A stretch of DNA of 64,000 nucleotides from assembly GCA_963774625.1 (NCBI GenBank), contig CAVZFQ010000014.1:55887-119886 (forward strand). Reading direction: 5' to 3'. Shown here one piece after another: positions 44,086 to 64,000 of this stretch; position 1 is the first letter of the stretch, and each line of letters begins with the position of its first letter. The notes below the pieces were generated by a model. It had not been told where the DNA came from. It ran no database searches and saw only the letters and a list, made by a program, of their open reading frames with translations. Made by a program: the position numbers and the translations under genes. Source of the DNA: an uncultured Actinomycetes bacterium (GTDB lineage: Bacteria; Actinomycetota; Thermoleophilia; Gaiellales; Gaiellaceae).

Positions 44086-45232
44086 CTAGGTGAGAGCGCC
44101 GACGAGGGTGTCGACCACCGCGTCCACTTCCTCATTGCCCATGTGCCCGTAGAGCGGGAGCGTGACCAAACGCTCTGCGACGCCCTCGGTGCGCGGCAGC
44201 GGACGTTTGGCGCCCAACTCCGCGTACAGCGAGAACCGATGGATCGGCGGGTAGTGGACGCTCGTCTGGATCCGTGCTTCCTGTAGCGCGGTCCGCACCT
44301 CGTCGCGAGGGGCGCCTTCAGGAAGGAGGATGACGGCGAGGTGGTGGGACGAGGAGCGCTGGGCCTCTTCATCGTCGAAGGGCATCGTGAGCCCGTACTG
44401 GCCGTGCAGGCGCTGCCGATAGGCGGCAGAGATCTTCCGCCGGCCGGCGTTCTCCCCGGTCAGCCGGCCGAGCTGAACGATTCCCATCGCCGCGCGCAGC
44501 TCGTCGAGTCGGTAGTTGAACCCCTGGGCGACGACGTCGTAGCTGTGCGCGTGGCCCCGGTGACGATCCCAGGTCAGCGTGGTCATCCCGTGTGAGCGCA
44601 ACAGCCGGAGCTGCGCCGCCAGCTCGTCGTCGTTCGTGACGATCATCCCGCCCTCGCCGACGGGCAGGTTCTTGTTCGAGAAGAAGCTGAAGCACCCGAT
44701 CTCGCCCAGGGTTCCGCACGCGGCTCCGTGGTAGGTGCCGCCGGGAGCGTGCGCCGCATCCTCGACGACTCGCAGGCCGTGTTTCGACGCGATTTCGCTG
44801 ACCGCGTCCATGTCGCACGCGAAGCCGCCGTAGTGCAGTGCGAGGATCGCCTTCGTCGCCGGGGTGACCGCGGCCTCGACGTCCGCCGGGTCGAGATTGA
44901 GGTCGGCGTCGCCGTGGATGTCGCAGAAGACGGGCGTCGCACCGGTGTGGAGAATCGCGTTCGCGGCGGCCACGAAGTTGAGCGACGGAAGGACGACCTC
45001 GTCCCCGGGCCCGCACTCGACCGCGAGCAAGCGCCAGGTGCAGCGCGGCCGTTCCGTTGGCGACGGCGATCGCGTGCCCGGCCCCGGTCAGCTCGGCGAA
45101 TGCCTCCTCGAAAGCGTTGACGCGCGGGCCCATCGACCACCAGCCCGAGGCCACGGCTTCGCGCGCCGCCTCCACGAGCTCGTCGTCGACGACCGGGTCC
45201 GCCAACGGGACCCTCCAGCGGGATTCGCTCAT
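44086..45232 (-). pseudogene. DegT/DnrJ/EryC1/StrS-family sugar aminotransferase interrupted by one apparent 1-nt insertion
   Basis: The N-terminal frame reads MSESRWRVPLADP..AVANGTAALHLAL. It joins the C-terminal frame LAVECGPGDEVVLPSLNFVAAANAI... near 45020-45040 (track ORFs 44369..45289 and 44086..45030). Confidence 0.8.
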
Positions 45233-45392: not shown

Positions 45393-46187
45393 ATGCGGCG
45401 CGATCTAAACGACCACCCAGGCTCGGGGAGCGTGAGCCTTCCCGGGGAAATGACTGGGCGCAGTCTCCTCGGCTTCGTCGACGAGACGGTCAAGCGAGCG
45501 CTCGACATTCTCGCTGCCGGAGCACTTCTCGTCCTCCTCGCTCTGCCCATTGCCTTGATCGTCGTCCTGATCAGGATCGACAGCCCCGGCCCCGGTTTCT
45601 ACCGCGCCCGGCGCATCGGATTCCGCGGCCGCGAGTTCAAGATGCTCAAGTTTCGGAAGATGCACGACGACGCCGAAGGGCCGGCGCTGACCACGAAGGC
45701 TGACGAGCGGTTCACGCGCTTCGGCCGGTTCCTCGCGAGCTCGAAGCTCGACGAGGTGCCTCAGCTCTGGAACGTCGTCAAGGGCCAGATGAGCCTCGTC
45801 GGGCCCCGCCCGGAGGACCCGAGTTTCGTCGAGGAATGGGCCGAGGCGTACGACACGATCCTCGAGGTGCGTCCCGGTGTCACGGGGCTCTCCCAGATCG
45901 CGTTCGCGAAGGAGGGCGAGATCCTCGACCCCGAGGATTCCGTCGGCCACTACCTGACGAGCATCCTCCCTCAGAAGGTCCGCATGGATCAGCTCTACGC
46001 TCGACGCCGCTCGCTGCTGATGGACGGTCGGATCCTCGTTTGGACGGTGGCAGCGGTCCTGTTGCGGCGCGACGTTGCCGTCCACCGCGAGACCGGAAGG
46101 CTCAACATGCGCCGGCGCCGGACGAGCACCCAACCGATCGGCAGCTTGCAACCGGCGGTCGTACGCCAACGGGTGGAAAGCCCGTAG
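45393..46187 (+). CDS. Initiating sugar-phosphate transferase (bacterial sugar transferase, WbaP/PglC-like small form)
   Basis: GGAGAGGAGAGGGG lies upstream of ATG 45393. One TM is followed by SPGPGFYRARRIGFRGREFKMLKFRKM...DEVPQLWNVVKGQMSLVGPRP. Confidence 0.85.
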   Translation: MRRDLNDHPGSGSVSLPGEMTGRSLLGFVDETVKRALDILAAGALLVLLALPIALIVVLIRIDSPGPGFYRARRIGFRGREFKMLKFRKMHDDAEGPALTTKADERFTRFGRFLASSKLDEVPQLWNVVKGQMSLVGPRPEDPSFVEEWAEAYDTILEVRPGVTGLSQIAFAKEGEILDPEDSVGHYLTSILPQKVRMDQLYARRRSLLMDGRILVWTVAAVLLRRDVAVHRETGRLNMRRRRTSTQPIGSLQPAVVRQRVESP

Positions 46188-46189
46188 CG

Positions 46190-47620
46190 ATGGCCAGTCG
46201 AACTGCGGCGAACGGCAACGGCTCCAGGCCGAGCCGTAATGGGAAGACGAAGGCTGTCGTGCTCGCGGGCGGCCGCGGCACGCGCCTCGCCCCGTATACC
46301 TCGGTGCTTCCGAAGCCGCTGATGCCGGTCGGTGAGCGAGCGATCCTCGAGCTCGTGGTCGACCAGCTCGAGTCCTGCGGGATCAAGGACATCACGTTCT
46401 GCGTCGGCTACCTCGCGCACCTCATCCAGTCGGTTTTCGACAACCGCGACAACGGGCACGTCTCGATCGAGTACGTGCACGAGCACGAAGCGCTCGGCAC
46501 CGCGGCGCCGCTCAAGCTCGTCGACGGCCTCGACAGCACGTTCCTCGTGATGAACGGCGACGTGCTGACGGAGCTCGACTACCGCGACCTGATCCGCTAC
46601 CACCAGGAGCACGGCAACATGCTCACGATCGCGACGCGCGCGCGGGCGATCAAGGTCGACTACGGGATCCTCCACCTCGACGTCATGCAACGAGTTCGCG
46701 ACTTCGAGGAGAAGCCTGAGATCACCACTCCGGTGAGCATGGGGATCTACGTCATGGAGCCCGAGGTGCTCGAGCACATCCCCGAGAACCAGTACTTCGA
46801 CTTTCCTCACCTCGTGGAGAAAATGCTCGAGGAGGGCTTGCCGATCGGCTCGTACCGCTACGACGGCCTCTGGTTCGACATCGGCCGCCAGGAGGACTAC
46901 GAGGAGGCCGTCTCGGCCTGGGCGGCCGCGGACGGCGGCGACATCGTGGGCCACCTGACGAACGCGATCGGCGCGAGCACCAAGGGTGCGAACGGCAACC
47001 GCGTCAAGCTCCGGTCGAACCGGTCGCTGAGGAGCCTCTCGCGCACGTACTCGAGGCCGAACAGCAACGGCGCACGGTTGCACTCGGTCGACGGCGGCAA
47101 CGGCAACGGCCTCGGCGAGTCCCTGGAGTGGAGCGGGCCGGATGCCTCCTCGGCGGGTGTCGTCGGTGACGACTTCCGCGACACGCTCGCCGGAGTGCCG
47201 GCCCCGGTCACGATCGTCACCACGTCCAGCCCCGAAGGGCCGCACGGCACGACGGTCAGCGCCTTCAGCTCCCTGTCCGCGGATCCGCCGCTCGTCCTCG
47301 TCGCGCTCGACCGGAAGTCCGACCTGCTCAACCTGCTGCCGAAGACCGGCAAGTTCGCCGTCAACCTGCTGGCCGGTGATCAGGAAGACCTCGGGCTGAC
47401 GTGCGCGAAGAAGGGCTCCGGGAAGTTCGACAAGGTTCCGTGGCACGAGGACCGGGGACTTCCTCGCATCGACGGCGCCGCGGCGTGGCTCGCCTGCGAC
47501 ATCCAGGAGTTTCTGCCCGGCGGCGACCACGTCATCGTCGTCGGCCTCGTCACGGCCTGTGAAAGCGAGAAGGACGAGGCGCTCGTCTACCACCGGCGCC
47601 GGTTCCTACAGCTTGCTTGA
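46190..47620 (+). CDS. Fusion protein: sugar-1-phosphate nucleotidyltransferase + Asn/Gly/Ser-rich linker + flavin reductase (Flavin_Reduct split-barrel)
   Basis: The N-terminus has AVVLAGGRGTRLAPYTSVLPKPLMPV (the G-x-G-T-R-L nucleotidyltransferase signature). The C-terminus has FRDTLAGVPAPVTIVTT...GTTVSAFSSLSADPPLVLVAL...GDHVIVVG. It is a single uninterrupted 476-codon frame. Confidence 0.8.
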   Translation: MASRTAANGNGSRPSRNGKTKAVVLAGGRGTRLAPYTSVLPKPLMPVGERAILELVVDQLESCGIKDITFCVGYLAHLIQSVFDNRDNGHVSIEYVHEHEALGTAAPLKLVDGLDSTFLVMNGDVLTELDYRDLIRYHQEHGNMLTIATRARAIKVDYGILHLDVMQRVRDFEEKPEITTPVSMGIYVMEPEVLEHIPENQYFDFPHLVEKMLEEGLPIGSYRYDGLWFDIGRQEDYEEAVSAWAAADGGDIVGHLTNAIGASTKGANGNRVKLRSNRSLRSLSRTYSRPNSNGARLHSVDGGNGNGLGESLEWSGPDASSAGVVGDDFRDTLAGVPAPVTIVTTSSPEGPHGTTVSAFSSLSADPPLVLVALDRKSDLLNLLPKTGKFAVNLLAGDQEDLGLTCAKKGSGKFDKVPWHEDRGLPRIDGAAAWLACDIQEFLPGGDHVIVVGLVTACESEKDEALVYHRRRFLQLA

Positions 47621-47657
47621 GGGCGGCCGCGCGCCGCAGCTTCTAGATTTAGGGGGG

Positions 47658-48689
47658 ATGAATGAAATGAGCGGCAACGACAACAATGCCGTCGAGGTCT
47701 TCTCGACGTGTCCGCAGTCGAAGGACGTCGACCAGGCGGAGTACCTGCAGCGGATCGAACAGGTCGCCCGGTGGAGCGACGAGGCCGGGTACCGCGGGAT
47801 TCTCGTCTACACCGACAACGGGCTCGTCGATCCCTGGCTCGTCTCCCAGCTCATCCTGCAGAGCACGGAGCAGCTCGCCCCGCTCGTCGCGATCCAGCCG
47901 ATCTACATGCATCCGTACACGGCCGCGAAGATGGTCGCCTCGCTCGCCTTCCTCCACGAGCGGCGGATCTACCTGAACATGCTCGCCGGCGGATTCAAGA
48001 ACGACCTCATCGCGCTCAACGACGACACGCCTCATGACGACCGCTACCTGCGCACCGTGGAGTACACGCAGATCATGACCGGGCTCCTGTCGAGCCCCGA
48101 CCCCGTCACCTTCGAGGGCAAGTACTACAAGGTCACGAACCTGAAGCTGACACCGCCGCTCGATCCCGATCTCTACCCCGGGATCATGATCTCGGGGTCG
48201 TCCGACGCAGGGCTCGCCGCCGCCCGAACGATCAACGCGACGGCGGTCAAGTACCCGAAGCCGCCCGGCGAGGAGGTCGACCAGCGCGGTGACACGGTCG
48301 ACTCCGGTGTCCGGGTCGGGATCATCGCGCGGGAAGATCCCGACGAAGCGTGGCGCGTCGCGCTCGAGCGCTTTCCCGAGGATCGCAAGGGACAGATCAC
48401 GCACAAGCTGGCGATGAAGGTCTCGGACTCGCAGTGGCACAAGCAGCTGTCCGAGCTGGGGGGCGACCGCCCCGTCGACGGGGAGAACCCGTACTGGCTG
48501 GGCCCGTTCGAGAACTACAACACCTTCTGTCCCTATCTCGTCGGCAGCTACGACGCGGTCTCGGCCGAGGTCGCGCGCTACATCGGCCTCGGCTTCAAGA
48601 CGTTCATCCTCGACATCCCCGTGTCGGACGAAGAGCTCCAGCACACGGCGGTCGTCTTCGAGCGCGGCAAGGAGCTTGCGTTGCGGTGA
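47658..48689 (+). CDS. Luciferase-like (LLM class) flavin-dependent monooxygenase
   Basis: GGGGGGA lies directly upstream of ATG 47658. The 343-aa ORF has a TIM-barrel LLM look (VFSTCPQS..., LNMLAGGF, ISGSS). A flavin reductase is encoded immediately upstream. Confidence 0.75.
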   Translation: MNEMSGNDNNAVEVFSTCPQSKDVDQAEYLQRIEQVARWSDEAGYRGILVYTDNGLVDPWLVSQLILQSTEQLAPLVAIQPIYMHPYTAAKMVASLAFLHERRIYLNMLAGGFKNDLIALNDDTPHDDRYLRTVEYTQIMTGLLSSPDPVTFEGKYYKVTNLKLTPPLDPDLYPGIMISGSSDAGLAAARTINATAVKYPKPPGEEVDQRGDTVDSGVRVGIIAREDPDEAWRVALERFPEDRKGQITHKLAMKVSDSQWHKQLSELGGDRPVDGENPYWLGPFENYNTFCPYLVGSYDAVSAEVARYIGLGFKTFILDIPVSDEELQHTAVVFERGKELALR

Positions 48690-50303
48690 CGCTGCTCCAG
48701 GACTATGTGACGCGTCAGGCTGAGACGCGGCCCGACGCTGTGGCTGTCGTCATGGGCGAGGAGCGGCTGACGTACGGGGAGCTCGAGGAGGCAGGGAACC
48801 GGCTCGCACGGCTGCTCCGTGAGGCGGGCTGCGTGCGCGGTGATCGCGTCTGCCTGTTCGTGCCGAAATGCCCGACGGCGATCGTCGCCGAGCTCGGCGT
48901 GCTGAAGGCCGACTGCGCGTACGTGCCGATCGACATCGCCAGCCCCGCTCCGCGCGTCGAGATGATCGTCGAGTCGTCGGAGCCCGCCTTGATCCTGGTG
49001 ACCGCTCCGGCGGCGACAGCTGCTCGACGACGTGCTCGCGCTGCGGCCCGGCACGAAAGTCCCCGTCGGCTCGCTCGAGGAGCCGCTCTCGGGAGAGCAT
49101 TTCGAGACGGCCTTCTCGGGCGCCGACATCGACTCGCAGTCGGCGGATCCCATTCCGACCGAGAACACGGCCGAGGATGCGGCGCACATCCTGTTCACGT
49201 CCGGCTCGACCGGCACGCCGAAGGGCGTCGTCATCAAGCACGAGAACGTGGTCACGTTCGTCGACTGGGCGACGGGCTACTTCGAGACGAAGGAGACCGA
49301 TCGGATCTCCGGGCATCCGCCGCTGCACTTCGACCTGTCGACCTTCGACATCTACGGGACCTTTCTCGCCGGTGCGGAGCTGCACCTGGTGCCCGCCGCG
49401 GCCAACCTGATGCCGAACAAGCTCGCGGCGCTGATTCGCGACTCGGAGCTCACCCAGTGGTTCGCCGTTCCCTCGACCTTCACGTACATGGCGAAGTTCG
49501 AGGCGTTCGAGCACGGCGACTTTCCGTCGCTGGAGCGCGTCATCTGGTGCGGGGAGGTCCTGCCGACCCCGATCCTGATGCACTGGATGGAGCGCCTCCC
49601 ACACGCCACCTTCACGAACCTCTACGGGCCGACCGAGGCCACGATCGCGAGCAGCTACTACACGATGCCCGAGATCCCGGCCAGCGAGACGGAGCCCGTG
49701 CCGATCGGCGTCGCCTGTGCGGGAGAAGAGCTGCTCGTCGTCGACGAGAAGCTGCAGCCGGTGCCGCCGGGCGAGATCGGCGACCTCTTCATCGCGGGTG
49801 TCGGCCTCAGCCCCGGCTACTGGCGGGACGAGGAGAAGACCGCTGCCGCGTTTCTCCCCGACCCGCGCAATCCCGGCGAGCGCATCTACCGGACGGGAGA
49901 CCTCGCGAAGGTCCGTGAGGACGGGCTCGTCGACTTCCTCGGGCGCGCCGACTCGCAGATCAAGTCGCGGGGCTACCGCATCGAGCTCGGTGAGATCGAG
50001 ACCGCGCTGAACGCGCTCGACGACATCCGGGAGTGTGCCGTCGTCGGCGTCGAGACCGGTGGTTTCGAGGGCACCGCCATCTGCTGCGCGTACGCGCCGG
50101 CCAAGGGCGAGAGCGTTGCTCCACCGGCGATCCGCGAGCAGATCGCGAAGACGCTCCCCTCCTACATGCTGCCCGCCCGCTGGAAGGTGCTGGACGAGCT
50201 CCCGAAGAACGTCAACGGCAAGATCGACCGGCGGTCGATCAGGGAGCAGTTCGAGGCCGAGGCGACCGCCGAGCCGTCCCAACAGGCCGCGGCCGGGCGC
50301 TAG
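48686..50303 (+). pseudogene. Stand-alone amino-acid/aryl-acid adenylation enzyme (AMP-binding, DltA/NRPS A-domain-like) interrupted by one apparent 1-nt insertion
   Basis: GTG 48686 overlaps the LLM TGA. The first frame reads VTLLQDYV..LTYGELEE..ILVTAPAA up to about 49015. It then continues in track ORF 49032..50303 with (Q)LLDDVL... The core motifs are LFTSGSTGTPKGV, YGPTEAT, YRTGDLAKV and GKIDRRS. Confidence 0.85.
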
Positions 50304-50318
50304 GCTCGGAGCCCCTCG

Positions 50319-50564
50319 ATGGCCGGCGATCCAGGCGTCAGCGAGCGCGTGCAGCAGCTCTTCCTCGAGACGCTGAACGTCCAGGTGCCGTCGCAGGAGG
50401 CAGACCTGATCGAGTCCGGGCTGATCGACTCGCTCGCCCTCGTCGAGCTCCTGTTCGCGATCGAGCGCGAGTTCTCGGTGAGCCTGCCGCTCGATGATCT
50501 GGAGATCGAGAACTTCCGCAGCGTCAACCGCATCAGCGAAGTGATCGAGGGGGCGCAGGCGTGA
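50319..50564 (+). CDS. Acyl/peptidyl carrier protein
   Basis: The 81-aa ORF has the phosphopantetheine site GLIDSLALVELL. Confidence 0.8.
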   Translation: MAGDPGVSERVQQLFLETLNVQVPSQEADLIESGLIDSLALVELLFAIEREFSVSLPLDDLEIENFRSVNRISEVIEGAQA

Positions 50565-51646
50565 GCGCGATCCGCCCGCTCGAGCGCGCCGATCTCCCGC
50601 AGGTCGTCAGCCTCTACGAGCACGTCGCGCGCTCCGGGTCGAGGACGCCTCCACCGGGACTGGCCGGCTACTTCGAACGGACCTTCCTCGACCACCCCTG
50701 GGCCGATGCGGAGATTCCGTCACTCGTCTACGCAGACGGTGACAAGATCCTCGGCTTCCTCGGATCGAGCGTCCGCAGGATGGAGCTCGAGGGGCGGCCG
50801 TTGCGCATGGGGATCAGCGGCCAGCTCGTGACGGAGCCCGAGGTGCGTAAGCGCGCCGCCGGTGCGTTCCTGATGCGCGAGTACATGTCCGGTGCGCAGG
50901 ACCTGACGATCACCGACACGGCGTCTGACATGGTGCGCCGGATCTGGGAGGGAGTCGGCGGCGAAACGAGCCAGCTCGCGTGCATCGGCTGGGTGCGCAT
51001 CTTCCGGCCGGCGCAGTTCGCTTCCGCCTATCGCGGTCGGCAGCAGGTCGAGCCGGTGCGCCGGGCGAGGATCTCGCAGGTTCTGGACACTGTGGCCTCG
51101 CCGCTGGCCTCGCGGACGCTCCGCCCGGATCGAGCGGGCGAGCTTCAGGCCGAGGAGCTGACGGCGGCCGAGCTCGTCAGCCAGGTTCGTGACATCAAGT
51201 TCCGCCTCCGTCCGGCGTACGACGAGGGATTTGCCGACTGGCTACTGCAAGAAGTGGCTGCGGTGCGCAGCCGGGGCACGCTCGTCAAGCAGCTCGTCCG
51301 CGGCGCCGACGGACGGGGCCGCGGGTGGTACGTCTACTACCTCGTTCCCGGCGGGATCTCCCAGGTGCTCCAGATCGGCGCCGAGGAGCGCAACGCGCCG
51401 GACGTGGTCGACCACCTCTTGCGGCATGCATACGACGCGGGCAGCGCGGGGATCCAGGGGCGGCTGGAGGCGCAGCTCAGAGAGCCGCTCGCACAGCGTC
51501 GGGCGCTCTTCCACCAGAGCGGGTTCCTGGTGTTGATCCACGCCAAGGATCGCGAGGTCTCGCATGCGATCCAGGCCGGGCACGCCCTCCTCACGCGCCT
51601 CGAAGGCGAGTTCTGGATGGGGCATCACCTCGAGCCGTTCCGGTGA
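50561..51646 (+). CDS. GNAT-family acyltransferase, long form (about 360 aa)
   Basis: GTG 50561 overlaps the carrier-protein TGA. The N-terminus IRPLERADLPQVVSLYEH and ..QLVTEPEVRKRAAGAFLMREY.. are GNAT-like. The call is by motif only. Confidence 0.55.
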   Translation: MSAIRPLERADLPQVVSLYEHVARSGSRTPPPGLAGYFERTFLDHPWADAEIPSLVYADGDKILGFLGSSVRRMELEGRPLRMGISGQLVTEPEVRKRAAGAFLMREYMSGAQDLTITDTASDMVRRIWEGVGGETSQLACIGWVRIFRPAQFASAYRGRQQVEPVRRARISQVLDTVASPLASRTLRPDRAGELQAEELTAAELVSQVRDIKFRLRPAYDEGFADWLLQEVAAVRSRGTLVKQLVRGADGRGRGWYVYYLVPGGISQVLQIGAEERNAPDVVDHLLRHAYDAGSAGIQGRLEAQLREPLAQRRALFHQSGFLVLIHAKDREVSHAIQAGHALLTRLEGEFWMGHHLEPFR

Positions 51647-52566
51647 ACGTGCTGCTCGTGGCCGAGGAATCGGCCGGAATCCAGGTGCTCAGAATGGTCG
51701 CGGGGTCGGAGCACGACCTGGTCGCGGTCCTGACCGAGCCGCCGACCCGGGGCGGAGGCGCAACCGTCGCGAGCGTGGCGGAAACGCTCGGCGTGCCGAT
51801 CCTGCCCTCGACGAGCGTGCGCGATCCGGAGTTCGCGGAGTGGATGCGGAGCAAGGAGATCGACCTCCTGCTCAACGTGCACTCGCTGTACGTCATCCAT
51901 GCGGACCTCGTCGCCGCTCCGCGAACCGGCAGCTTCAACCTGCACCCGGGGCCGCTCCCCGAGTACGCAGGCCTGAACGCGCCGAGCTGGGCGATCTACC
52001 ACGGAGAGGACAGTCACGCCGTGACGGTGCACTGGATGGAGCCCGGTATCGACACCGGTGCGATCGCCTACGAGACCTCCTTCGAGATCACCGAGGACGA
52101 CACGGGCCTCTCCCTGAGCGCGCGCTGTGTGCGTGAAGGATTGCCCCTTTTCCAGCAGCTGCTGGACGTGGCCGCGCAGGGTCGCGACGCCATTCCGGCG
52201 ACCGCGCAGGATCCATCGCGCCGCAGGTACTTCGGCGCCGACGTGCCGAATGACGGCCGGATCGCCTGGGGCCGCCCGGCCCGCGAGGTGGTCGACTTCG
52301 TCCGGGCCTGCGACTACTTCCCGTTCCCCTCTCCGTGGGGCCAGGCCCAGGCCAGGCTGGCCGGGGCGACTGTGGCCGTCACCAAGGCTTCCCGAACGGG
52401 TGAGGCTGCCGGCGCCGAGCCCGGCGACGTCGGCCCTTCCGGCGAGGAGGGCGTGCGCGTGGCGACCGGGGACGAGTGGATCCTCGTGCACCGGCTGCAC
52501 GTGGACGGCCAGGCTCAGCCCGCAGCGGCTGTGCTCGAACCGGGCATGCGGCTCGACGATGGTTAG
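51643..52566 (+). CDS. Formyltransferase (Fmt/ArnA-N-like, with a C-terminal Fmt_C-like domain)
   Basis: GTG 51643 overlaps the upstream TGA. NVHSLYVIHADLV...SFNLHPGPLPEYAGLNAPSWAI...TVHWMEPGIDTG matches the formyl_trans_N HxxxD/SLLP-like core. Confidence 0.8.
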   Translation: MNVLLVAEESAGIQVLRMVAGSEHDLVAVLTEPPTRGGGATVASVAETLGVPILPSTSVRDPEFAEWMRSKEIDLLLNVHSLYVIHADLVAAPRTGSFNLHPGPLPEYAGLNAPSWAIYHGEDSHAVTVHWMEPGIDTGAIAYETSFEITEDDTGLSLSARCVREGLPLFQQLLDVAAQGRDAIPATAQDPSRRRYFGADVPNDGRIAWGRPAREVVDFVRACDYFPFPSPWGQAQARLAGATVAVTKASRTGEAAGAEPGDVGPSGEEGVRVATGDEWILVHRLHVDGQAQPAAAVLEPGMRLDDG

Positions 52567-52573
52567 GTCGCGG

Positions 52574-53311
52574 TCAGCGTCCCAAGGCGGCGCGCGCCAG
52601 GGCCGCGGCCCGGTAGATGGGCCTCGCGACGAACGACGTCTTCAGGGTTGCCCGCAGCAGCGAATCCGCGCGGTAGACGTGCGCCCGCCTGATGGAATAG
52701 CGGCCGGCCTTCTCTCGCGTGCCGTGCAGCGTGAACGCAGCGTCGTAGCCGGCACGCTCGGCCAGGCTCTTGACGCGCGCGTCGTGCTCGCCGTACGGAT
52801 AGGCGAGGTAGCGGCACGGCCGTCCGAGCTGATCCTCGCAGCGGGCTCGCGACTCCCGGAGCTCGCGGTCGATCTCGGCTTCGTCGAGGCGGGGGAGATG
52901 CGGGTGGCTGACGGTATGCGAGCCGATCTCGAACCCCCGGTCCGCGAGGGCGCGGAGCTCGTCCCAGTCCATGGTCTCCAACTCGTCGGGCTGAGCGATC
53001 GCGTCCGCCGCGAGCTCGGGAACGTCGAGCGGACGGCCCTCGTCTGCAAAGGCGGTCGAGGCAAAGATCGTGGCCGGCACGCCCAGGCGCTCGAGCAGGT
53101 CGAGGGCACGAGCGATGCTCGTGTACGCGTCGTCGAAAGTCACGTGCAGGAGGCGGCCGTTCCCGTCGATCGCCTCGCTCGCGCCGACGGGCTGGAACCC
53201 GCGATCGAGCAGGCTCCGTATCTGACGCTCGAAGGCCGCCGGCGGCAGGGCCAGGGCATGGCCCCAGCCGTCGGAGACGGCGTGGTAGCAAAGGACGAGC
53301 GGACGTGACAT
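52574..53311 (-). CDS. Polysaccharide deacetylase (NodB homology domain)
   Basis: The 245-aa ORF carries LHVTFDDAYTS and FEIGSHTVSHPHL. This is the only minus-strand gene inside the plus-strand block. Confidence 0.85.
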   Translation of the reverse strand: MSRPLVLCYHAVSDGWGHALALPPAAFERQIRSLLDRGFQPVGASEAIDGNGRLLHVTFDDAYTSIARALDLLERLGVPATIFASTAFADEGRPLDVPELAADAIAQPDELETMDWDELRALADRGFEIGSHTVSHPHLPRLDEAEIDRELRESRARCEDQLGRPCRYLAYPYGEHDARVKSLAERAGYDAAFTLHGTREKAGRYSIRRAHVYRADSLLRATLKTSFVARPIYRAAALARAALGR

Positions 53312-54624
53312 CAGCTGCCTTCGACCACGGCTGGCTGGCCGCCGTGCTTCCTGCCGACGCGAGTCGCTTCCGCGCCCTCGACGAGGGGCTGGCGGCGGTG
53401 CTCGCCGACGCGGGGGCGGAACTGGTCGAGTTCGGCGCGGACGTTGACATCGCGCCTGCCTCCGAGCTCAGAGGAGAGGCCGACCTCGCCGTGGTCAGCT
53501 TTGCGGCGCGCCCCCACGACAGCACGCACCTCGCCGTACGGGTGGGTCGCCGGCTCGCGAGTGCAGCCGAGGTGCGCGTACGGGCGCGTCGTGCGCGGAC
53601 GGTCGTCCGCCGCCGGGGGTACTCGCGGACGGAGGTGGTCTTCTGGGACGTGAGGCAGCAGTTCCGGGCTCCGGGCTCCCGTGCAGGGCGACGGAAGCCG
53701 GTGGAGTACCTCCCTCAGCGAGCGCTGGTCATCGGCCGCCGCCCGCCCCTCGCCTCGACCCTGCTCGACGCGTCGCTCTCGGCCGCGGATGCGAAGCTTC
53801 TCGGCCCGCCGTCGATCCGGTCCGGGCTCGTCGCCGCGATGACCGACAAAGGGCTGATTCGGATCGCGGTCGGGCCGTCGAGGCGCCAGCTCGACGGACA
53901 ATCGCGAGCGCTCGAGCTCCTGCAGGCGATAGACCCCGAACCACCTGTAGCCGAGCGGGCTCCATGGCTGCTCGCTTCCGGCAAGTCGGGCCTCGCCGAA
54001 TGGTCGCTCGAGCGCCGGCTGGCCGGATCGAGACCGACCACCCTCACCGATCCATTGCGTGCCCAGTGCCTGGACTTCCTCGTCGCGCTGCACACCGCCG
54101 GCGGGTCGGGAGCGGCGCTCCGTCCCAGTGAGGATGCGGAGAGCATCGCCGTCTTTCGACCCGAGCGAGGAGTGGCGCTCGCAGCCGTCGGTAGCCGGTT
54201 GGACTCTGCGCTCGCCGACGTCCCGCGCGGTTTCGGGCACGGCGACTTTTTTCTCGGGAACCTGTTGGCCGAAGGGGATCACCTCACTGGGGTTGTGGAC
54301 TGGGACGCGGGCGGGCCGGGCCGCCTGCCGTTGTTGGATCTGATCCACCTTCAGCATCTGGCGCAGTATTCCCTCGCCGACGAGGACTGGGGCCCCTCGC
54401 TCGTTCGGCATCTGTTCCCGTGGGCGCAGTCCGGCGGGGACGAGGTGGCGCGCACGTACTCCAGCCGGATCGGCCTCGAGGTGACGCCCGGTCTGCTCCA
54501 GAGCCTCGCAGCCGCCTACTGGCTGGATCGCACCGCCTACACCTTGCGGACGCACCGGCAGCGGCGCACGGAGCCCAGATGGCTGGCGCGAAACGTGGAT
54601 CACGTCCTGGAGGCGGTCGCGTGA
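53305..54624 (+). CDS. Aminoglycoside-phosphotransferase-like (APH/choline-kinase fold) kinase
   Basis: The Brenner-like motif is GFGHGDFFLGNLL..VVDWDAGG. The GTG start overlaps the divergent deacetylase start by 7 nt, so one of the two starts may be wrong. Confidence 0.65.
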   Translation: MTSAAFDHGWLAAVLPADASRFRALDEGLAAVLADAGAELVEFGADVDIAPASELRGEADLAVVSFAARPHDSTHLAVRVGRRLASAAEVRVRARRARTVVRRRGYSRTEVVFWDVRQQFRAPGSRAGRRKPVEYLPQRALVIGRRPPLASTLLDASLSAADAKLLGPPSIRSGLVAAMTDKGLIRIAVGPSRRQLDGQSRALELLQAIDPEPPVAERAPWLLASGKSGLAEWSLERRLAGSRPTTLTDPLRAQCLDFLVALHTAGGSGAALRPSEDAESIAVFRPERGVALAAVGSRLDSALADVPRGFGHGDFFLGNLLAEGDHLTGVVDWDAGGPGRLPLLDLIHLQHLAQYSLADEDWGPSLVRHLFPWAQSGGDEVARTYSSRIGLEVTPGLLQSLAAAYWLDRTAYTLRTHRQRRTEPRWLARNVDHVLEAVA

Positions 54625-54631
54625 GGCGAAG

Positions 54632-55423
54632 TTGGCGAAAACCCCTCGAACAGCCCATCATTCGATGATGGCGTCCTACCCCGCGCTCAAGGCGGCCCTG
54701 CCCGGGCGCCTCAAGCTCGTCCTCAGGCGCAGCTTCTTGCGGGTCGCATCGATCCTGAACACGGGCTCGAACGTCTCGTGTCCGTGCTGCGGTAGCAGCT
54801 TCCGGAAGTTCGCCCGTTTCCACGGGCTCAACGACCAATGCCCGAGGTGCGGGTCGTTGATGCGACAGCGCGCCGTGACGCTGTACCTCCGGGACGTCCT
54901 GCGTGTACCGGAGAGAGGCGGAGACATCCTTCATATCGGCCCGGCGTCCTCGGTTCAGGGCTGGCTCGTCTCGTTCCCGGCGGTGCACTATGTATCGCTC
55001 GACCTGGACTCTCCGCTGGCCGACATCAAGGGGGATATCACCGATCTCCCGTTCCCCGACGGCTCCTACGATCTGATCGTCTGCCTGCACGTGCTCGAGC
55101 ACGTGCAGGAGGACCGCAAGGCGATCAGCGAGCTCTTTCGAGTGCTGAGGCCCGGAGGCACAGCAGTGATCCAGGTTCCCCCGAGCCCCTTCGAAGAGAC
55201 GCTCGAGGACCCGACGGTGACCGATCCAGCGGAGCGCGAGCGCCGGTACGGGCAATACGACCACGTGCGGCTCTGCGGCTCCGACTATCTCGAGCGGCTC
55301 GAGGAGCCCGGCTTCGCGGTGACTCGAGAGGACTACGCGGAGCGGCTCAACCTGGCCACGCGCTCGCTCTACGAGATTCACGCCGGTGAGCCGTTCTATG
55401 TGTGCCTGAAGCAGCCCGCGTGA
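54632..55423 (+). CDS. Class I SAM-dependent methyltransferase with an N-terminal Cys4 zinc-ribbon
   Basis: CPCCGSSF..x..CPRCGS is followed by ILHIGP...DLDS...DITDLPFPDGSYDLIVCLHVLEHV...RVLRPGG. The start is either TTG 54632 or ATG 54665. Confidence 0.8.
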   Translation: MAKTPRTAHHSMMASYPALKAALPGRLKLVLRRSFLRVASILNTGSNVSCPCCGSSFRKFARFHGLNDQCPRCGSLMRQRAVTLYLRDVLRVPERGGDILHIGPASSVQGWLVSFPAVHYVSLDLDSPLADIKGDITDLPFPDGSYDLIVCLHVLEHVQEDRKAISELFRVLRPGGTAVIQVPPSPFEETLEDPTVTDPAERERRYGQYDHVRLCGSDYLERLEEPGFAVTREDYAERLNLATRSLYEIHAGEPFYVCLKQPA

Positions 55424-56445
55424 AGCGAGTCTCGGTCATGGCGCCGATGTGGAACGAGGCGTCGCACATCGACGGCTTCGTCGCCGACATCGCAGCGCAG
55501 GACTTCGACGGGGAGCTCGAGTTGCTGGTCGCCGACGGAGCATCGAGCGACGGGTCCGTGGAGCGGTTGCGCGGCGCGGCCGAGCGTGAGGGGATCGAGG
55601 TCACGGTTCTCGACAACCCCGCGCGGTGGGTCTCCGCCGGCCTCAACTCGTGCATCCGCTCGGCCACCGGGGACCTCATCGTCCGCGTCGACTGTCACAG
55701 CCGGTACCCGACGGACTACGTGCGAAGGTGCGTGGCCGCGGCCGAGGAGACCGGGGCCGAGAACGTCGGCGGCGTCTTCATTCCGGTCGGCCGCACCGGC
55801 ACCGAGCGTGCAGTGGCCTGCGCCATGAACAGCCCCTTCGGCGGGATTCACTGGACGCGCCACGGAGAGGGCGCGCGCGTCGAGGTCGACACCGTGCCCT
55901 ACGGGGCCTTCACGCCGGATGCGTTCGAGCGGGCGGGGCTCTTCGACGAGACGCTCGTCCGCAACCAGGACGACGAGTTCAACCTGCGGCTGCGCCTCGC
56001 CGGCGGCAAGATCGTGCTCGACCCTGCGATTCGGATCTTCTACACGCCCCGCGGCAGCTTCACCCGGCTCTTTCGGCAGTACTACGAGTACGGGCTCTGG
56101 AAGCCGGCGGTCATGAGCAAGCACGGCCGGGTCGTCAGCGCGCGCAGCCTCGTGCCCATTGTCTTCGTCGGCTCCCTCGCCGTCCTACTCGCGCTCGCGG
56201 CGTTCAGCGTGACTGCGCGCATCCTGCTGGCGCTCGAGCTCGCCGTCTACCTCGCCGGCGCCCTCGTCTTCGGCGTGCGCGCCATCCGTGCGAACAGTGA
56301 GAAGTGGAGCCTGCTCCCGCGCGTGATCGCGTCGTTCGTGGTCTTCCACGTCGCGTACGGGATCGGGATGGCTGCCGGTCTAGCCCGTGTCGGGCTCCGG
56401 CGGCGGCGCAGCGGCGCTTCCGCCGGAGCCGAAGCGCTTCCGTAG
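55420..56445 (+). CDS. Family 2 glycosyltransferase with C-terminal TM segments
   Basis: GTG 55420 overlaps the upstream TGA. VSVMAPMWNEASHI, a DGASSDGS (DxD-like) region, and QDDEFNLR are present. Confidence 0.85.
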   Translation: MKRVSVMAPMWNEASHIDGFVADIAAQDFDGELELLVADGASSDGSVERLRGAAEREGIEVTVLDNPARWVSAGLNSCIRSATGDLIVRVDCHSRYPTDYVRRCVAAAEETGAENVGGVFIPVGRTGTERAVACAMNSPFGGIHWTRHGEGARVEVDTVPYGAFTPDAFERAGLFDETLVRNQDDEFNLRLRLAGGKIVLDPAIRIFYTPRGSFTRLFRQYYEYGLWKPAVMSKHGRVVSARSLVPIVFVGSLAVLLALAAFSVTARILLALELAVYLAGALVFGVRAIRANSEKWSLLPRVIASFVVFHVAYGIGMAAGLARVGLRRRRSGASAGAEALP

Positions 56446-57753
56446 CCGGCGAGCGAACCAGGCGACGTCGCTCGGCCGCGGCACGAGGTCGGACGCTCGC
56501 GCTCCCAGCGTGCGGATGAAGATCGTCGCGACGACGAGGCCCGCTGCCGTGTGCGCCAGGGCGGCCGCCACCGCAGCGCCCGTGCCGCCGAACGGTGGAA
56601 TCAGCACGACGTCGAGCACGACGCTGCACACGAATCCGGCGCCGATGGCCATGCTCTGCAGGCCGGGGTTCCCGCGCGCGACGAGCGCGCTACCGAGGAG
56701 CTTGATCGTCGTGACCCCGATCGAGGCCACGACGAGGATACGAAGCATGCCGACCGAGTCTTGGAACTCGTCACCGAAGATGACCGTGCAGAGGATCGGC
56801 GCCGCCGCGAACATGACGACACCGAAGAGCGCAGTAATGAGGATCACGGCGCGGAAGACGCGCGCGGCCAGTCGCGCCGCCTCGTCCCGTGCGGCCCGAA
56901 CCAGATCCGGCCTCTGGACGTAGGACAGCGCCGTCGGCAAGTACCAGAGGGCTTCGGCCCAGGCGACGGCGACGCTGTAGACCCCGAGCTCGCGCGAGCC
57001 AGCGATTGCGCCCAGCAGCCACTGGTCGAGGCGGTAGTTGCCGAGCAACATGATCCGGCCCGGGTGGGCCCGGGCTCCGAAGGCCAGCGCGCGTTTGGCG
57101 AGCGCCAGATCGGGTCGTCCGAAGCCCGCCAGCCTGCGCTGCACGTACCAGGCAAGCAGCACGGTCTCGAGTGTCTGCCCGGCGAGCCACCAGCCGACCG
57201 CGGTCCCGACAGTGAGGATCCCGAAGGCGTAGAAGAGCCCGTTCCCGACGACGTTCAGCGCCGGTGCGAGCAGATAGGCGGTATTCGTGACCGCGAAGCC
57301 GTAGTCGGCCTGCACGAGGAAGCGGAGGAAGATCTGGAGCAGGATCGCCGGGATGAAGGCGAACGCCACCCAGCGGAGGGTCGGGTCCGACTCGCCGGCG
57401 ACGGCGGGAACGAGGGCGATGAGGCCGGCCAGCACGGCGATCGCCACGCCGCCGAGGACGAGCGAGAGCAGGACCGAGTTCGAAGCCAGCGCGCGCCGTA
57501 CCCGTGGCTCCGACGCTGCGAGGTTGGCATTCGCCTCCTGGAGGCCGAACGTCGCGAGGTTGGCCGTCAGGAACGTGATCGCCGTCAGAAAGGCGACGTT
57601 GCCGCGGCCCTCGGCGCCGAGCGCGCGGGCCACGATCAACACGCTGAGGAGCGACAGAAACGCCGCCGAGACCTGTGTGCCGTACGTCAGCACGGCCGAG
57701 CGGGCAAAGGGCGGCGGAGTTGTGCCGGCTTCGTTGTTCGGCCGTTTCGACAC
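56380..57753 (-). CDS. Polysaccharide flippase (Wzx, MOP/PST family)
   Basis: The ORF starts at GTG 57753 and has about 12-14 hydrophobic segments. Typical PST N-terminus: SAVLTYGTQVSAAFLSLLSVLIVARALGAEGRG. Confidence 0.8.
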   Translation of the reverse strand: MSKRPNNEAGTTPPPFARSAVLTYGTQVSAAFLSLLSVLIVARALGAEGRGNVAFLTAITFLTANLATFGLQEANANLAASEPRVRRALASNSVLLSLVLGGVAIAVLAGLIALVPAVAGESDPTLRWVAFAFIPAILLQIFLRFLVQADYGFAVTNTAYLLAPALNVVGNGLFYAFGILTVGTAVGWWLAGQTLETVLLAWYVQRRLAGFGRPDLALAKRALAFGARAHPGRIMLLGNYRLDQWLLGAIAGSRELGVYSVAVAWAEALWYLPTALSYVQRPDLVRAARDEAARLAARVFRAVILITALFGVVMFAAAPILCTVIFGDEFQDSVGMLRILVVASIGVTTIKLLGSALVARGNPGLQSMAIGAGFVCSVVLDVVLIPPFGGTGAAVAAALAHTAAGLVVATIFIRTLGARASDLVPRPSDVAWFARRLRKRFGSGGSAAAPPPEPDTG

Positions 57754-57939: not shown

Positions 57940-59256
57940 GTGATCGTCCTGACTCGGCCCGTTTTGCTCCTCCCGCTGGCCGTGGTGACCGTCTTCATCG
58001 AGTCCCTGGTGTTCGCCGGGCTGCCGGTCACGCGCCTGCTGGCGCCGGCGGCACTGATCATGGTGCTCGTCGAGCTGCTGCGGGGCGGCGCTCGCATCCG
58101 GCCGGGCGCTCCGCTCGTGGCCGCCAGCCTCTACGTGGCGTGGGCCGTGGCGAGCGGCGCCTGGACGATGAGCGCGCCAGGCACCCAGTACCTGCTCCAG
58201 TCCCTCGGCATCTCCCTCGTCTACTTCCTCGCCAGCGCTTCCCTTCCGCGCTCCGAGGATGACCTACGACTTTTTCTCTACGTCGTCGCCTTCGGCGCGG
58301 GTCTCATGGGCACCCTCTCTGTCCTAGCGTTCGCCGGGATGCCGTCACCCCCCGGCATCGATCTGCTCCAGGCCGGGCGCTCGCAAGGAGGTGTCGGCGA
58401 CCCTGACTTCTTCGCTGCGATTCAGCTCGTCGTCGTCCCGCTCGTCCTCGTGCTGGCGAGCGAGACCACGAAGAAGCCGCTCCGGGTCGCTCTCTATCTG
58501 AGCCTGCTGCCGATCCTCGCCTCGATCTTCACATCGCTGTCCCGCGGAGCGTTCATCGGCGTCGTCGTCCTGGGCACGCTCTTCCTCGTCTCGCGCCCGG
58601 AGCGTCTCTTCCGCTCGCGGCAGGAGAAGGCCCTCGCCCTCGTAGTCGTCGCGCTCGGCATGATCGGCTTCTTCTCGCGGCCGTTCCTCCGCGACCAGGT
58701 GGTGACGCGTGCGCAGTCGATCTACGCGCCACAGACTCAGGAGGACAAGACGGGCTCCGGGCGCACGAACATCTGGAAGGCGGCGGCGAGGACGGCGACC
58801 GAGCATCCGGTCCTCGGGGTCGGGTACGGAAGCTTCAGGTACATCTCCGAAGAGCTGATCCTGCAGACGCCGGGCGTCGACCTCGAGGTCTACGGGGACC
58901 GCAGCGAGGGGGACAACTACGCGGCGCACCAGACCTATCTGGGCACCGCCGCGGAGCTGGGCTTCACGGGCCTCTTCCTCTACCTCGGGATCCTGGTCAC
59001 GACCGGGTTGGCGCTGAGACGCACGGTCAAGCGCGCGGCACTCCTGGGGTCGCCGTTCGTGGGCCGTGTCGCCCACGCCCTGCTCCTGGGCCTGATGACT
59101 TGGGCAGTCACCGCTTTCTTCCTCAGCACGGAGACGGCGAGGATGTTCTGGGTCATCGTCGGCCTCAGCCTCGCCTTACCGAGGCTGCTTCCGGAGCCCT
59201 GGGGAGGGGCTGCGAAGGACGACTACCCCGAGCGCTCGAACGCGCCGACGTCGTAG
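57940..59256 (+). CDS. O-antigen polymerase/ligase-like (Wzy_C) membrane protein
   Basis: The polytopic ORF has the periplasmic-loop signature GSGRTNIWKAAARTATEHPVLGVGYGSF...AHQTYLGTAAELGFTG. The GTG start is uncertain (see findings). Confidence 0.8.
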   Translation: MIVLTRPVLLLPLAVVTVFIESLVFAGLPVTRLLAPAALIMVLVELLRGGARIRPGAPLVAASLYVAWAVASGAWTMSAPGTQYLLQSLGISLVYFLASASLPRSEDDLRLFLYVVAFGAGLMGTLSVLAFAGMPSPPGIDLLQAGRSQGGVGDPDFFAAIQLVVVPLVLVLASETTKKPLRVALYLSLLPILASIFTSLSRGAFIGVVVLGTLFLVSRPERLFRSRQEKALALVVVALGMIGFFSRPFLRDQVVTRAQSIYAPQTQEDKTGSGRTNIWKAAARTATEHPVLGVGYGSFRYISEELILQTPGVDLEVYGDRSEGDNYAAHQTYLGTAAELGFTGLFLYLGILVTTGLALRRTVKRAALLGSPFVGRVAHALLLGLMTWAVTAFFLSTETARMFWVIVGLSLALPRLLPEPWGGAAKDDYPERSNAPTS

Positions 59257-60616: not shown

Positions 60617-63595
<2,979 letters not shown>

Positions 63596-64000
63596 CGGTC
63601 GAACCAGAGCGAGAAAGTCAGCAAGGCCCAGATTTTCCGGCTGTTGTCGGCGCGCCGTTCGGCGTGGCTCTCGAGCAGCTGGGTGACGACCTCGGGACGG
63701 AAGAAACCCTGCCGTCGAACGTTCTCCGGCGACAGGACGTCCCTCATCAACGGCTGCAGGTCCTTGCGCAGCCAGGTGCCGATCGGGGGCACGAAGCCCT
63801 TCTTCTTGCCTTCGAGAATCTCTCGTGGGAGGAGGGGAGCGACGGCCTTCCGGAGGAGTCGCTTTTTGGCGAGCCCTCGCACCTTCAGCTTGCTCGGGAG
63901 TGCCAGCGCGAGCTCGGCGACGACCGGGTCGAGGATCGGCACGCGCGCCTCGAGCGAGTGCGCCATGCTCGCTCGGTCCGTCTTGACGAGCATGTCGTCG

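Follow-up and report, generated by a model that had tools for sequence, protein, structure and literature searches.

The window analysed here, 64,000 nucleotides of contig CAVZFQ010000014.1 from an uncultured Actinomycetes bacterium of the Gaiellaceae (assembly GCA_963774625.1, positions 55,887 to 119,886), carries at 46190-52566 a block of six plus-strand genes. They encode a nucleotidyltransferase-flavin reductase fusion, a luciferase-like flavin-dependent monooxygenase (LLM), an amino-acid adenylation enzyme, a small carrier protein, an acyltransferase with two GNAT folds in one chain (tandem GNAT) and a formyltransferase. Judging from sequence, we lean towards reading this block as a module that tailors a Wzx/Wzy-type cell-surface glycan by way of a carrier protein. 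The reading is based on the gene content, the conservation of a core of genes, the fixed specificity code of the adenylation enzyme, the fold of the transferase, the occurrence of carrier::transferase fusions and the glycan context. The features of the block are as follows, with Pfam domains in brackets where these support the assignment.

46190..47620, plus strand: gene 1, a fusion of a sugar-1-phosphate nucleotidylyltransferase with an NAD(P)H:flavin reductase, 476 aa (NTP_transferase 6.2e-37, Flavin_Reduct 4.3e-39)
47658..48689, plus strand: LLM, divergent SsuD/MsuD-like (Bac_luciferase 2.1e-30)
48686..50303, plus strand: stand-alone amino-acid adenylation enzyme, split by a +1 insertion (AMP-binding, AMP-binding_C)
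49016..49017, plus strand: single extra C, GCGA[C]AGCTG, which shifts the adenylation frame (from alignment with relatives)
50319..50564, plus strand: 81-aa carrier protein with the phosphopantetheine-attachment motif GLIDSL (PP-binding 7.9e-10)
50561..51646, plus strand: tandem-GNAT acyltransferase, 361 aa, proposed to off-load the carrier (predicted fold and Foldseek)
51643..52566, plus strand: formyltransferase of the Fmt/ArnA-N/FDH-N type with a C-terminal OB-like domain (Formyl_trans_N, Formyl_trans_C)

The G+C content of the window is about 68%, and between 44 and 54 kb third-position G+C tracks one coding frame per gene. A preliminary description of this DNA had proposed a tight plus-strand unit of six genes, and the Pfam scan recovers six successive plus-strand coding regions with Flavin_Reduct, Bac_luciferase, AMP-binding and AMP-binding_C, PP-binding, weak GNAT, and Formyl_trans_N and Formyl_trans_C domains. 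The three GTGA stop/start overlaps (48686, 50561 and 51643) were verified, and the adenylation stop at 50303 is separated from the carrier start at 50319 by 15 nt, close to the 16 nt given before. The supposed plain flavin reductase does contain a Flavin_Reduct domain but is fused to an NTP_transferase domain, and the adenylation enzyme, previously taken for a single gene, has its coding sequence in two frames owing to a +1 insertion at ∼49017. The conserved block also takes in an APH-family kinase gene and a methyltransferase gene further downstream, both absent from the preliminary description. The arrangement is far from what chance would give; the same block is found again in dozens of genomes.

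Scanning one genome per species gave 43 loci, distributed over Gaiellaceae, Solirubrobacterales, Thermoleophilaceae, Egibacteraceae, Acidimicrobiales, Pseudonocardia, Actinomycetospora and one Pseudomonadales metagenome-assembled genome (MAG). Gene content was compared over 45 related loci (numbered with L below). The adenylation, carrier and tandem-GNAT genes form an invariant core, a contiguous trio, in the loci with an orthologous adenylation gene, spanning Gaiellaceae, Solirubrobacterales, Thermoleophilaceae, Pseudonocardia, Actinomycetospora and uncultured Actinomycetes. The LLM gene lies directly beside the trio in at least 30 loci, in three gene orders; L008 and L009 have none. Of the 45 loci, 21 have the formyltransferase and 11 a NodU/CmcH-type carbamoyltransferase, with no locus having both; the carbamoyltransferase gene occupies the formyltransferase slot, directly after or before the tandem-GNAT gene. 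Carbamoyltransferase genes were located at 11122 in L015, 3140 in L019, 2249 in L022 and 8140-9972 in L030, and in seven other Actinomycetospora loci (L034-L038, L045 and L048).

The adenylation enzyme was scored through the intact orthologue of L004, which is 96% identical to the two halves in the window. This protein passes the amino-acid adenylation model TIGR01733 (396.3 bits, cut-off 317.4), on which the halves alone score 80.6 and 313.3 bits. A fatty-acyl-AMP ligase of a lipid pathway, considered in the preliminary description, is ruled out by this score and by the retained Asp235; the enzyme is of the amino-acid type. The best single-domain match in the PDB is the second module of LgrA (254 bits), which we take to be Gly-activating, followed by DltA (238 bits). 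Extraction of the specificity code, as had been suggested, gave a single code, D-L-F-F-(V/L/I)-W-L-I-A-K. In the window it reads D-L-F-F-V-W-L-I-A-K, with Asp235 and Lys517 present and with Cys302 in a 'WCGE' motif. Of 30 orthologues, down to 55% identity, 29 keep code and Cys302 essentially invariant, only position 299 varying (V/L/I), and the invariance extends to the loci L008 and L009 that lack an LLM. Retention of Asp235 would indicate that the substrate is an amino acid and the bulky residues Phe239, Phe278, Trp301 and Leu322 that its side chain is very small, while Cys302, which is common to DltA and the LgrA Gly domain, suggests glycine or a D-amino acid. Most likely, as far as the code can tell, the substrate is a small amino acid lacking an L-configured side chain, for example glycine or D-alanine.

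The 361-aa transferase was modelled by AlphaFold2 with a predicted local distance difference test score (pLDDT) of 87.8 and contains two GNAT folds in one chain. Foldseek matched it to N-myristoyltransferase (probability 1.00, E 3e-13) and to the Eis-like structures 3n7z and 4my3 (TM score 0.54-0.58); N-myristoyltransferase and Eis are both acylators of amines. The earlier GNAT assignment thus stands on the predicted fold and on family members, the window protein itself scoring 19.8 bits on Acetyltransf_9, for which Pfam requires 25. It reached no Pfam cut-off and had no NCBIfam match, while three family members (P0143, P0155 and P0165) pass Acetyltransf_1 with 26-29 bits against 20.7. Close homologues of the protein number in the hundreds and almost none has a name, and a profile search at E<=1e-30 put the size of the family at 1,184 clusters (50% identity). 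By eye, no signal peptide is obvious.

The link between transferase and carrier is genetic as well as physical. The carrier gene lies immediately upstream of the transferase gene with a GTGA overlap, conserved across lineages, and an N-terminal PP-binding domain is found in four of the six longer family members examined (P0153, P0155, P0158 and P0165). P0237, which joins the tandem GNAT to a C-terminal ATP-grasp domain, is preceded by a stand-alone carrier gene; the gene upstream of the fusion P0153 has an Asn_synthase domain (contexts viewed at loci L052 and L053). The PP-binding and ATP-grasp fusions tie the family to carrier-bound substrates, whatever the loading enzyme, and suggest that loading enzymes of several kinds can partner it. 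Five other loci (L016, L018, L026, L028 and L029) have tandem-GNAT homologues of 44-48% identity together with adenylation enzymes of 30-32% identity and lack an LLM. These distant homologues with different adenylation enzymes suggest sister subfamilies that transfer other acyl groups.

In gene 1 the NTP_transferase domain covers residues 21-242 and the Flavin_Reduct domain residues 335-475. In the PDB the N-terminal part matches a UTP-glucose-1-phosphate uridylyltransferase best (131 bits), and the reductase part is HpaC/HsaB-like (∼100 bits, NCBIfam). Bac_luciferase and Flavin_Reduct domains thus lie in adjacent genes, the gene content of a two-component monooxygenase. Matches to the reductase are confined to loci with an LLM (7/33, compared with 0/12 of the loci lacking one; p=0.16), and L008 has the nucleotidyltransferase with neither reductase nor LLM. 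The LLM itself scores 120 bits on the NCBIfam SsuD models (cut-offs 510-518) and 104 bits on MsuD in the PDB; Arg226 of SsuD is kept and His228 is aligned to Gly. A true SsuD sulfonatase is ruled out by the score far below cut-off and by the lack of conservation of His228. The comparison with MupA/Atu3671-type LLMs in the preliminary description found no support and that type is ruled out, as the NCBIfam scan gave no TIGR04020 match at E<=0.01 and SsuD/MsuD were the best matches. With ratios of nonsynonymous to synonymous substitution rates (dN/dS) of 0.03-0.08 (0.03-0.05 for the LLM), the LLM and adenylation genes are the most constrained of the locus.

The glycan flanks that had been described were all found by Pfam, namely DegT, Bac_transf, Polysacc_deac_1, GT2, Wzx-type, Wzy_C and Asn_synthase genes, and the joint presence of Bac_transf, Glycos_transf_2, Polysacc_synt_3 and Wzy_C identifies a Wzx/Wzy-dependent locus. 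The same kind of neighbourhood was seen elsewhere. A Pfam census of the 136 nearest non-core open reading frames (ORFs) in 17 diverse loci was led by Bac_transf (nine ORFs), DegT, Wzx-type and Acetyltransf_6 (six each), followed by Asn_synthase, dehydratase/epimerase, Polysacc_deac_1 and Wzy_C (five each). No polyketide synthase (PKS), condensation or thioesterase domain was among the 25 most frequent flank families. The preliminary description had asked whether the cassette sits beside nonribosomal peptide synthetase (NRPS), PKS or lipid genes; its flanks are dominated by glycan genes instead. In Pseudonocardia the core and the formyltransferase gene adjoin deacetylase, GT2 and FemAB-like genes. 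The genes around the block in the window are listed below.

41551-43929, minus and plus strands: histidine kinase and response regulator (Pfam/NCBIfam scans)
44086..45232, minus strand: DegT/PseC/ArnB-like sugar aminotransferase with a +1 insertion near 45029/45030 (DegT_DnrJ_EryC1 3.4e-97)
45393..46187 (start at 45393 or 45450), plus strand: small initiating polyprenyl-phosphate glycosyl-phosphotransferase (Bac_transf 4.7e-53)
52574..53311, minus strand: de-N-acylase of the polysaccharide-deacetylase family (Polysacc_deac_1 3.2e-27; TFDD and HxxxH motifs)
53305..54624, plus strand: APH-family small-molecule kinase with an extra N-terminal domain (APH 8.5e-09)
54665..55423, plus strand: S-adenosylmethionine-dependent methyltransferase (Methyltransf_11/23/25)
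55420..56445, plus strand: family 2 glycosyltransferase (GT2; Glycos_transf_2 1.8e-17)
56380..57693, minus strand: Wzx-type (MOP) flippase (Polysacc_synt_3, Polysacc_synt; NCBIfam MOP flippase)
57940..59256, plus strand: Wzy/O-antigen-ligase-like polymerase (Wzy_C 5.5e-23)
59223-60386, minus strand: Pel9A-like right-handed beta-helix protein (Pfam/NCBIfam scans)
60644-63595, plus strand: 983-aa Laminin_G_3/Metallophos protein (Pfam/NCBIfam scans)
63514..64000, minus strand: AsnB-type amidotransferase, truncated by the window end (Asn_synthase 8.9e-39)

The initiating transferase scores 213 bits on the NCBIfam exopolysaccharide (EPS) model EPS_sugtrans and the AsnB-type protein 114 bits on the XrtA/PEP-CTERM system amidotransferase, both under cut-off. 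Genes for recR, aspartokinase and aspartate-semialdehyde dehydrogenase lie upstream of the locus. The 983-aa protein, encoded beside Wzy, combines two Laminin_G_3 domains with an Ig-like and a calcineurin-like phosphoesterase domain, and the beta-helix gene is kept in relatives; both proteins may be glycan-processing or surface proteins. The histidine kinase/response regulator pair borders relatives too (1156-3540 in L004, 903-3344 in L005 and 4659-6970 in L020), and in Pseudonocardia a kinase and a LuxR-type regulator lie immediately upstream of the LLM gene; the pair may be a dedicated regulator of glycan decoration. Rfam and tRNA scans of the window gave no RNA related to the locus, the only RNA genes detected being tRNA-Thr(TGT) at 1780-1854 and tRNA-Ala(CGC) at 18831-18902, the latter called by ARAGORN alone and not by Rfam at its gathering score.

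The preliminary description had as its central idea that an activated, carrier-borne, oxidised group is passed by the GNAT to an amino sugar, which fits the conservation of the trio, the carrier::GNAT fusions and the glycan neighbours. In the scheme that we propose, it is inferred which amino acid is used, where it is hydroxylated, what is formylated, what accepts the acyl group and how the steps follow one another. The adenylation enzyme would activate one small amino acid and load it as a thioester onto the 81-aa carrier. The SsuD-like LLM would then hydroxylate the tethered aminoacyl group with reduced flavin from the reductase domain of gene 1, a step that appears optional because some relatives lack the LLM. 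The Fmt-like enzyme would N-formylate the free amine, most simply the α-amino group of the residue, and elsewhere the carbamoyltransferase in the same gene slot would cap it instead. The tandem GNAT would move the finished acyl group from the phosphopantetheine arm to a sugar amine provided by the DegT aminotransferase, the deacetylase-family enzyme or both, and the decorated sugar would join the repeat unit through the Bac_transf and GT2 enzymes and be exported by Wzx/Wzy.

Several points weigh against this scheme. The formyltransferase scores marginally best on ArnA-type models and its gene co-occurs with a deacetylase-family gene, and both facts fit formylation of a sugar amine. In all Actinomycetospora genomes no glycan gene can be recognised within 10 kb of the core and its accompanying carbamoyltransferase gene, so the acceptor need not always be a polysaccharide. 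The carrier::GNAT fusions would equally fit a carrier-bound amino acid that is acceptor rather than donor, and the adenylation gene of this window is frame-shifted. The substrate assignment uses a motif-derived code and features of DltA and Gly domains, not a trained predictor. As to novelty, there are close mechanistic precedents by analogy.

The formyltransferase has both Pfam domains above threshold, and its motifs FNLHPGPLPEYAG and GIDTG align to the catalytic motifs of Fmt (Asn/His and DTG). Its three NCBIfam matches, all under cut-off, are PRK06988 (109 bits), which we take to be possibly a split Burkholderia ArnA, ArnA (104 bits, cut-off 777) and Fmt (97 bits). The order of these scores leaves room for a path like that of ArnA-ArnD, which we regard as possible but not probable. 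There the Fmt-like enzyme would formylate the sugar amine made by DegT, as ArnA acts after ArnB, with the transamination moved earlier; the GT2 or the phosphotransferase would place the formamido sugar on a lipid carrier; the deacetylase-family enzyme would remove the formyl group, as ArnD does; and only then would the tandem GNAT pass the carrier-borne group to the amine so freed. The Polysacc_deac_1 family includes ArnD, the formyltransferase and deacetylase genes adjoin in the window, and an intact DegT relative scores 296 bits on ArnB (322 on PseC; both under cut-off). Over the 45 loci, Fmt and Polysacc_deac_1 occur together in 14, Fmt alone in seven, the deacetylase alone in three and neither in 21, counts that ignore shared ancestry. 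However, Fmt, the FDH N-domain and the ArnA N-domain are equidistant in the PDB search (∼80 bits each; ArnA N-domain, 80 bits), the NCBIfam scores are all far under cut-off and the deacetylase has no ArnD model match at E<=0.01. No UDP-GlcA decarboxylase-type dehydrogenase of the ArnA kind was found by Pfam between 44 and 64 kb. That a carbamoyltransferase can take over the Fmt slot is hard to square with transient protection of a sugar, and Pseudonocardia loci have Fmt without a DegT gene within 10 kb.

No signal peptide is obvious by eye at the N-terminus of the deacetylase. Its gene and that of the kinase lie head-to-head with their starts overlapping by 7 nt, and deacetylase::APH kinase fusions of 600-710 aa exist in other organisms (P0301, P0302, P0306 and P0318), from which both probably act in one pathway; they possibly act together with the nucleotidyltransferase domain of gene 1. 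The APH kinase had no match in a sequence search of the PDB. Its AlphaFold2 model (pLDDT 91) matched type II homoserine kinase, aminoglycoside phosphotransferases and LicA in Foldseek, and from this model it appears to be a generic small-molecule kinase of the homoserine kinase II/aminoglycoside phosphotransferase/choline kinase type. The methyltransferase is conserved in L004-L008 and L011.

The adenylation gene has its first 110 codons in one frame and the other 428 in another, so that AMP-binding profile positions 2-99 fall in the first and positions 151-384, with AMP-binding_C, in the second. The extra C at ∼49017 is missing in L004, L005 and the metagenome contigs L049, L050 and L051 (83-92% identity), and the adenylation gene of L006 gives a full-length match in a single frame. 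In the DegT gene, less than 4 kb away from this site, an extra A at ∼45029/45030 (GCGAGC[A]AGCGCC, plus strand), missing in five relatives, places the N-terminal 68 residues in another frame, and the profile match covers positions 56-359 only. We think it likely that both insertions are assembly errors. Closest to the window, at 90-92% DNA identity, are MAGs labelled 'uncultured Actinomycetes' whose samples bear MFD names, obtained from soils in Denmark by deep Nanopore sequencing (PMC12313526), and two of the closest MAGs (L007 and L031) have broken-up matches in several genes of the same locus, as is typical of residual indel errors; the long reads and this fragmentation make us lean towards error. 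Beyond the frameshift, dN/dS of the adenylation gene is 0.04-0.08 against three relatives, equal to or below that of intact neighbours, so the lesion is either very recent or an artefact.

There is a smaller chance that both insertions are genuine mutations, for instance selected by phage, and that the module is dead in this organism and its glycan undecorated. Both are seen in the window alone, against five or six relatives, neither lies within a long homopolymer and switching by wbeL frameshift under phage pressure is known in Vibrio cholerae O1 (PMC3441752). Such an inactivation would have to be very recent given the dN/dS of the shifted part, and the long-read origin of the nearest MAGs and the fragmentation in L007 and L031 point the other way. 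An identical copy of the carrier protein is present in four short metagenome contigs, none of which extends to the frameshift site. Sequencing run ERR11630401 contains the same proteins as the window. Whichever holds, gene-by-gene reading of long-read metagenome assemblies may conceal broken genes and calls for caution.

Two further explanations we consider improbable. The cassette could make a small N-acyl amino acid or amide natural product, its position in a glycan locus being incidental. Eight or nine Actinomycetospora genomes have the order carbamoyltransferase, tandem GNAT, LLM, adenylation enzyme, carrier amid unrelated genes, with a siderophore-interacting protein, an FAD oxidase and LigD as neighbours. 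Against this, initiating transferases, flippases, polymerases, sugar aminotransferases and deacetylases are nearest in at least 24 of the 45 loci and recur in the 17 diverse loci scanned with Pfam, where condensation, thioesterase and PKS domains are missing from the top 25 flank families; in the window the block sits between the initiating transferase and the GT2, Wzx and Wzy genes with overlapping reading frames.

Alternatively, the tandem GNAT could act on the carrier, N-acylating the bound amino acid from acyl-CoA in the manner of N-myristoyltransferase, with another enzyme releasing the product. N-myristoyltransferases are indeed the top fold matches, and the carrier::GNAT fusions would agree with such a reading, but the core is conserved without a thioesterase, a condensation enzyme or any other protein for off-loading, which would leave the pathway without an exit, and a cap for the amine is already supplied by the formyltransferase or carbamoyltransferase.

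Esterification of wall-polymer hydroxyls, as in teichoic acid D-alanylation, is very improbable: the adenylation enzyme has WCGE and FDLS features and the L004 orthologue scores 330.6 and 338.4 bits on the DltA models TIGR01734 and NF003417, but these lie under the cut-offs (559.85 and 476), as do the 35.6 bits of the carrier on DltC, Pfam matched no MBOAT (DltB) or DltD among the 24 ORFs at 28083-64000, and the constant partner is a GNAT-fold protein without an obvious signal peptide, which is typical of amine acylation.

If the tailoring reading is right, soil Actinomycetota would have a widespread, uncharacterised way to diversify their surface polysaccharides. NRPS-type adenylation would become a third loading chemistry for carrier-borne glycan substituents, beside ATP-grasp and acyl-CoA-type ligases, and a function would be defined for a tandem-GNAT family whose member in the window reaches no Pfam or NCBIfam cut-off. 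We suggest, tentatively, that the tandem GNATs could be the first members of a large, unnamed family of sugar N-aminoacyl transferases that depend on a carrier protein, and the module a new combinatorial glycan decoration of Actinomycetota, made of a small amino acid, an optional hydroxyl from the LLM and a formyl or carbamoyl cap. Decorations would then include N-formyl- or N-carbamoyl-hydroxyglycyl or -alanyl amides, the formyltransferase and the deacetylase might form a pair for protection and deprotection as in butirosin biosynthesis, and the optional LLM with the choice of cap would amount to a modular tailoring kit that could serve glyco-engineering. The cassette is carried by cultured organisms (Pseudonocardia sp. 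H11422 and several Actinomycetospora type strains), which makes the hypothesis directly testable.

A literature search on the combination of an LLM, a carrier protein and a formyltransferase with a polysaccharide or O antigen found nothing directly relevant. The preliminary description knew of no characterised pathway with this exact gene set; a closely analogous logic, with different enzymes, exists in the 4-amino-2-hydroxybutyrate (AHBA) pathway of butirosin. That pathway comprises the carrier BtrI, the ligase BtrJ, BtrK, the LLM BtrO with the flavin reductase BtrV, the transferase BtrH and BtrG. Its side chain is said, in work attributed to Li in 2005 and Llewellyn in 2007, to be tethered to an acyl carrier protein and then transferred. 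By analogy it appears to be the closest characterised logic: a carrier-tethered amino acid is hydroxylated by an LLM with a flavin reductase, bears an N-protecting group and is transferred to an amine of an amino sugar or aminocyclitol. Hydroxylation of the side chain by BtrO is described in PMC2922099, which cites Llewellyn 2007 for it, and the likeness is drawn from gene content and this source. Butirosin uses an ATP-grasp ligase where the block has an NRPS-type adenylation enzyme (one family member being fused to an ATP-grasp domain), a BtrH-type transferase where it has a tandem GNAT, and a γ-glutamyl cap where formyl or carbamoyl is proposed; the acceptor there is an aminoglycoside, here part of a Wzx/Wzy polysaccharide.

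Among glycans the closest example, again by analogy, would be the tetronate module of V. cholerae O1 (RfbK/L/M/N/O = WbeK-O), in which the adenylating enzyme RfbL/WbeL and the carrier RfbK belong to a locus for perosamine N-acylated with tetronate (PMC12208996, PMC3441752). Both systems place an adenylate-forming enzyme and a dedicated carrier in a surface-glycan locus. Those of V. cholerae, in an O-antigen locus, are predicted to make the acyl group with which perosamine, a 4-amino sugar, is N-acylated, and the adenylating gene is known to be inactivated by frameshifts. V. cholerae uses a hydroxy acid (2,4-dihydroxybutanoate) and not an amino acid as substrate, the other enzymes differ, export is ABC-transporter-dependent in a Gram-negative host and the pathway is predicted, not fully reconstituted.

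DltA/DltC, the comparison made in the preliminary description, shares a stand-alone adenylation enzyme with FDLS and CGE motifs, a carrier of ∼80 aa, a small amino acid and a wall polymer. The analogy fails, and membership of a Dlt system is ruled out, on the DltA and DltC scores and the missing DltB and DltD matches given above; the block adds an LLM and a formyltransferase, and a GNAT-fold transfer to an amine is proposed in place of extracytoplasmic esterification. With ArnA/ArnB/ArnC/ArnD the locus shares a DegT-type aminotransferase, an Fmt-like enzyme with a C-terminal domain, a GT2 and a Polysacc_deac_1 protein, but no protein reaches an Arn equivalog cut-off, the ArnA dehydrogenase domain and ArnT are missing here, and the block has a Wzx/Wzy system and a carrier-protein module. 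Nod factors are made by the deacetylase NodB, the N-acyltransferase NodA with acyl-NodF, the methyltransferase NodS, the carbamoyltransferase NodU and the GT2 NodC. The likeness lies in de-N-acetylation of a hexosamine followed by carrier-based re-acylation, with methyl and carbamoyl tailoring and a GT2, and all of these kinds of domain are present among the loci studied, a comparison made from established knowledge and not by a sequence test. Nod factors differ in the fatty acyl donor from NodE/NodF, the unrelated fold of NodA and their nature as secreted lipo-oligosaccharides.

Finally, exosortase-A (PEP-CTERM) EPS loci combine a TIGR03098 AMP-ligase, a carrier, a FemAB-like double-GNAT-type protein and an AsnB-type amidotransferase. 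The adenylation, Wzy and AsnB proteins of the window have matches to the models for these loci, but all are under cut-off, no exosortase is present here and those systems are themselves uncharacterised. Because the enzymes differ or miss the family cut-offs in every case, the block is not a member of any of the systems compared. As judged by sequence comparison, it appears to be a new form of glycan N-acylation that depends on a carrier protein, and its transferase family has no name in Pfam or NCBIfam.

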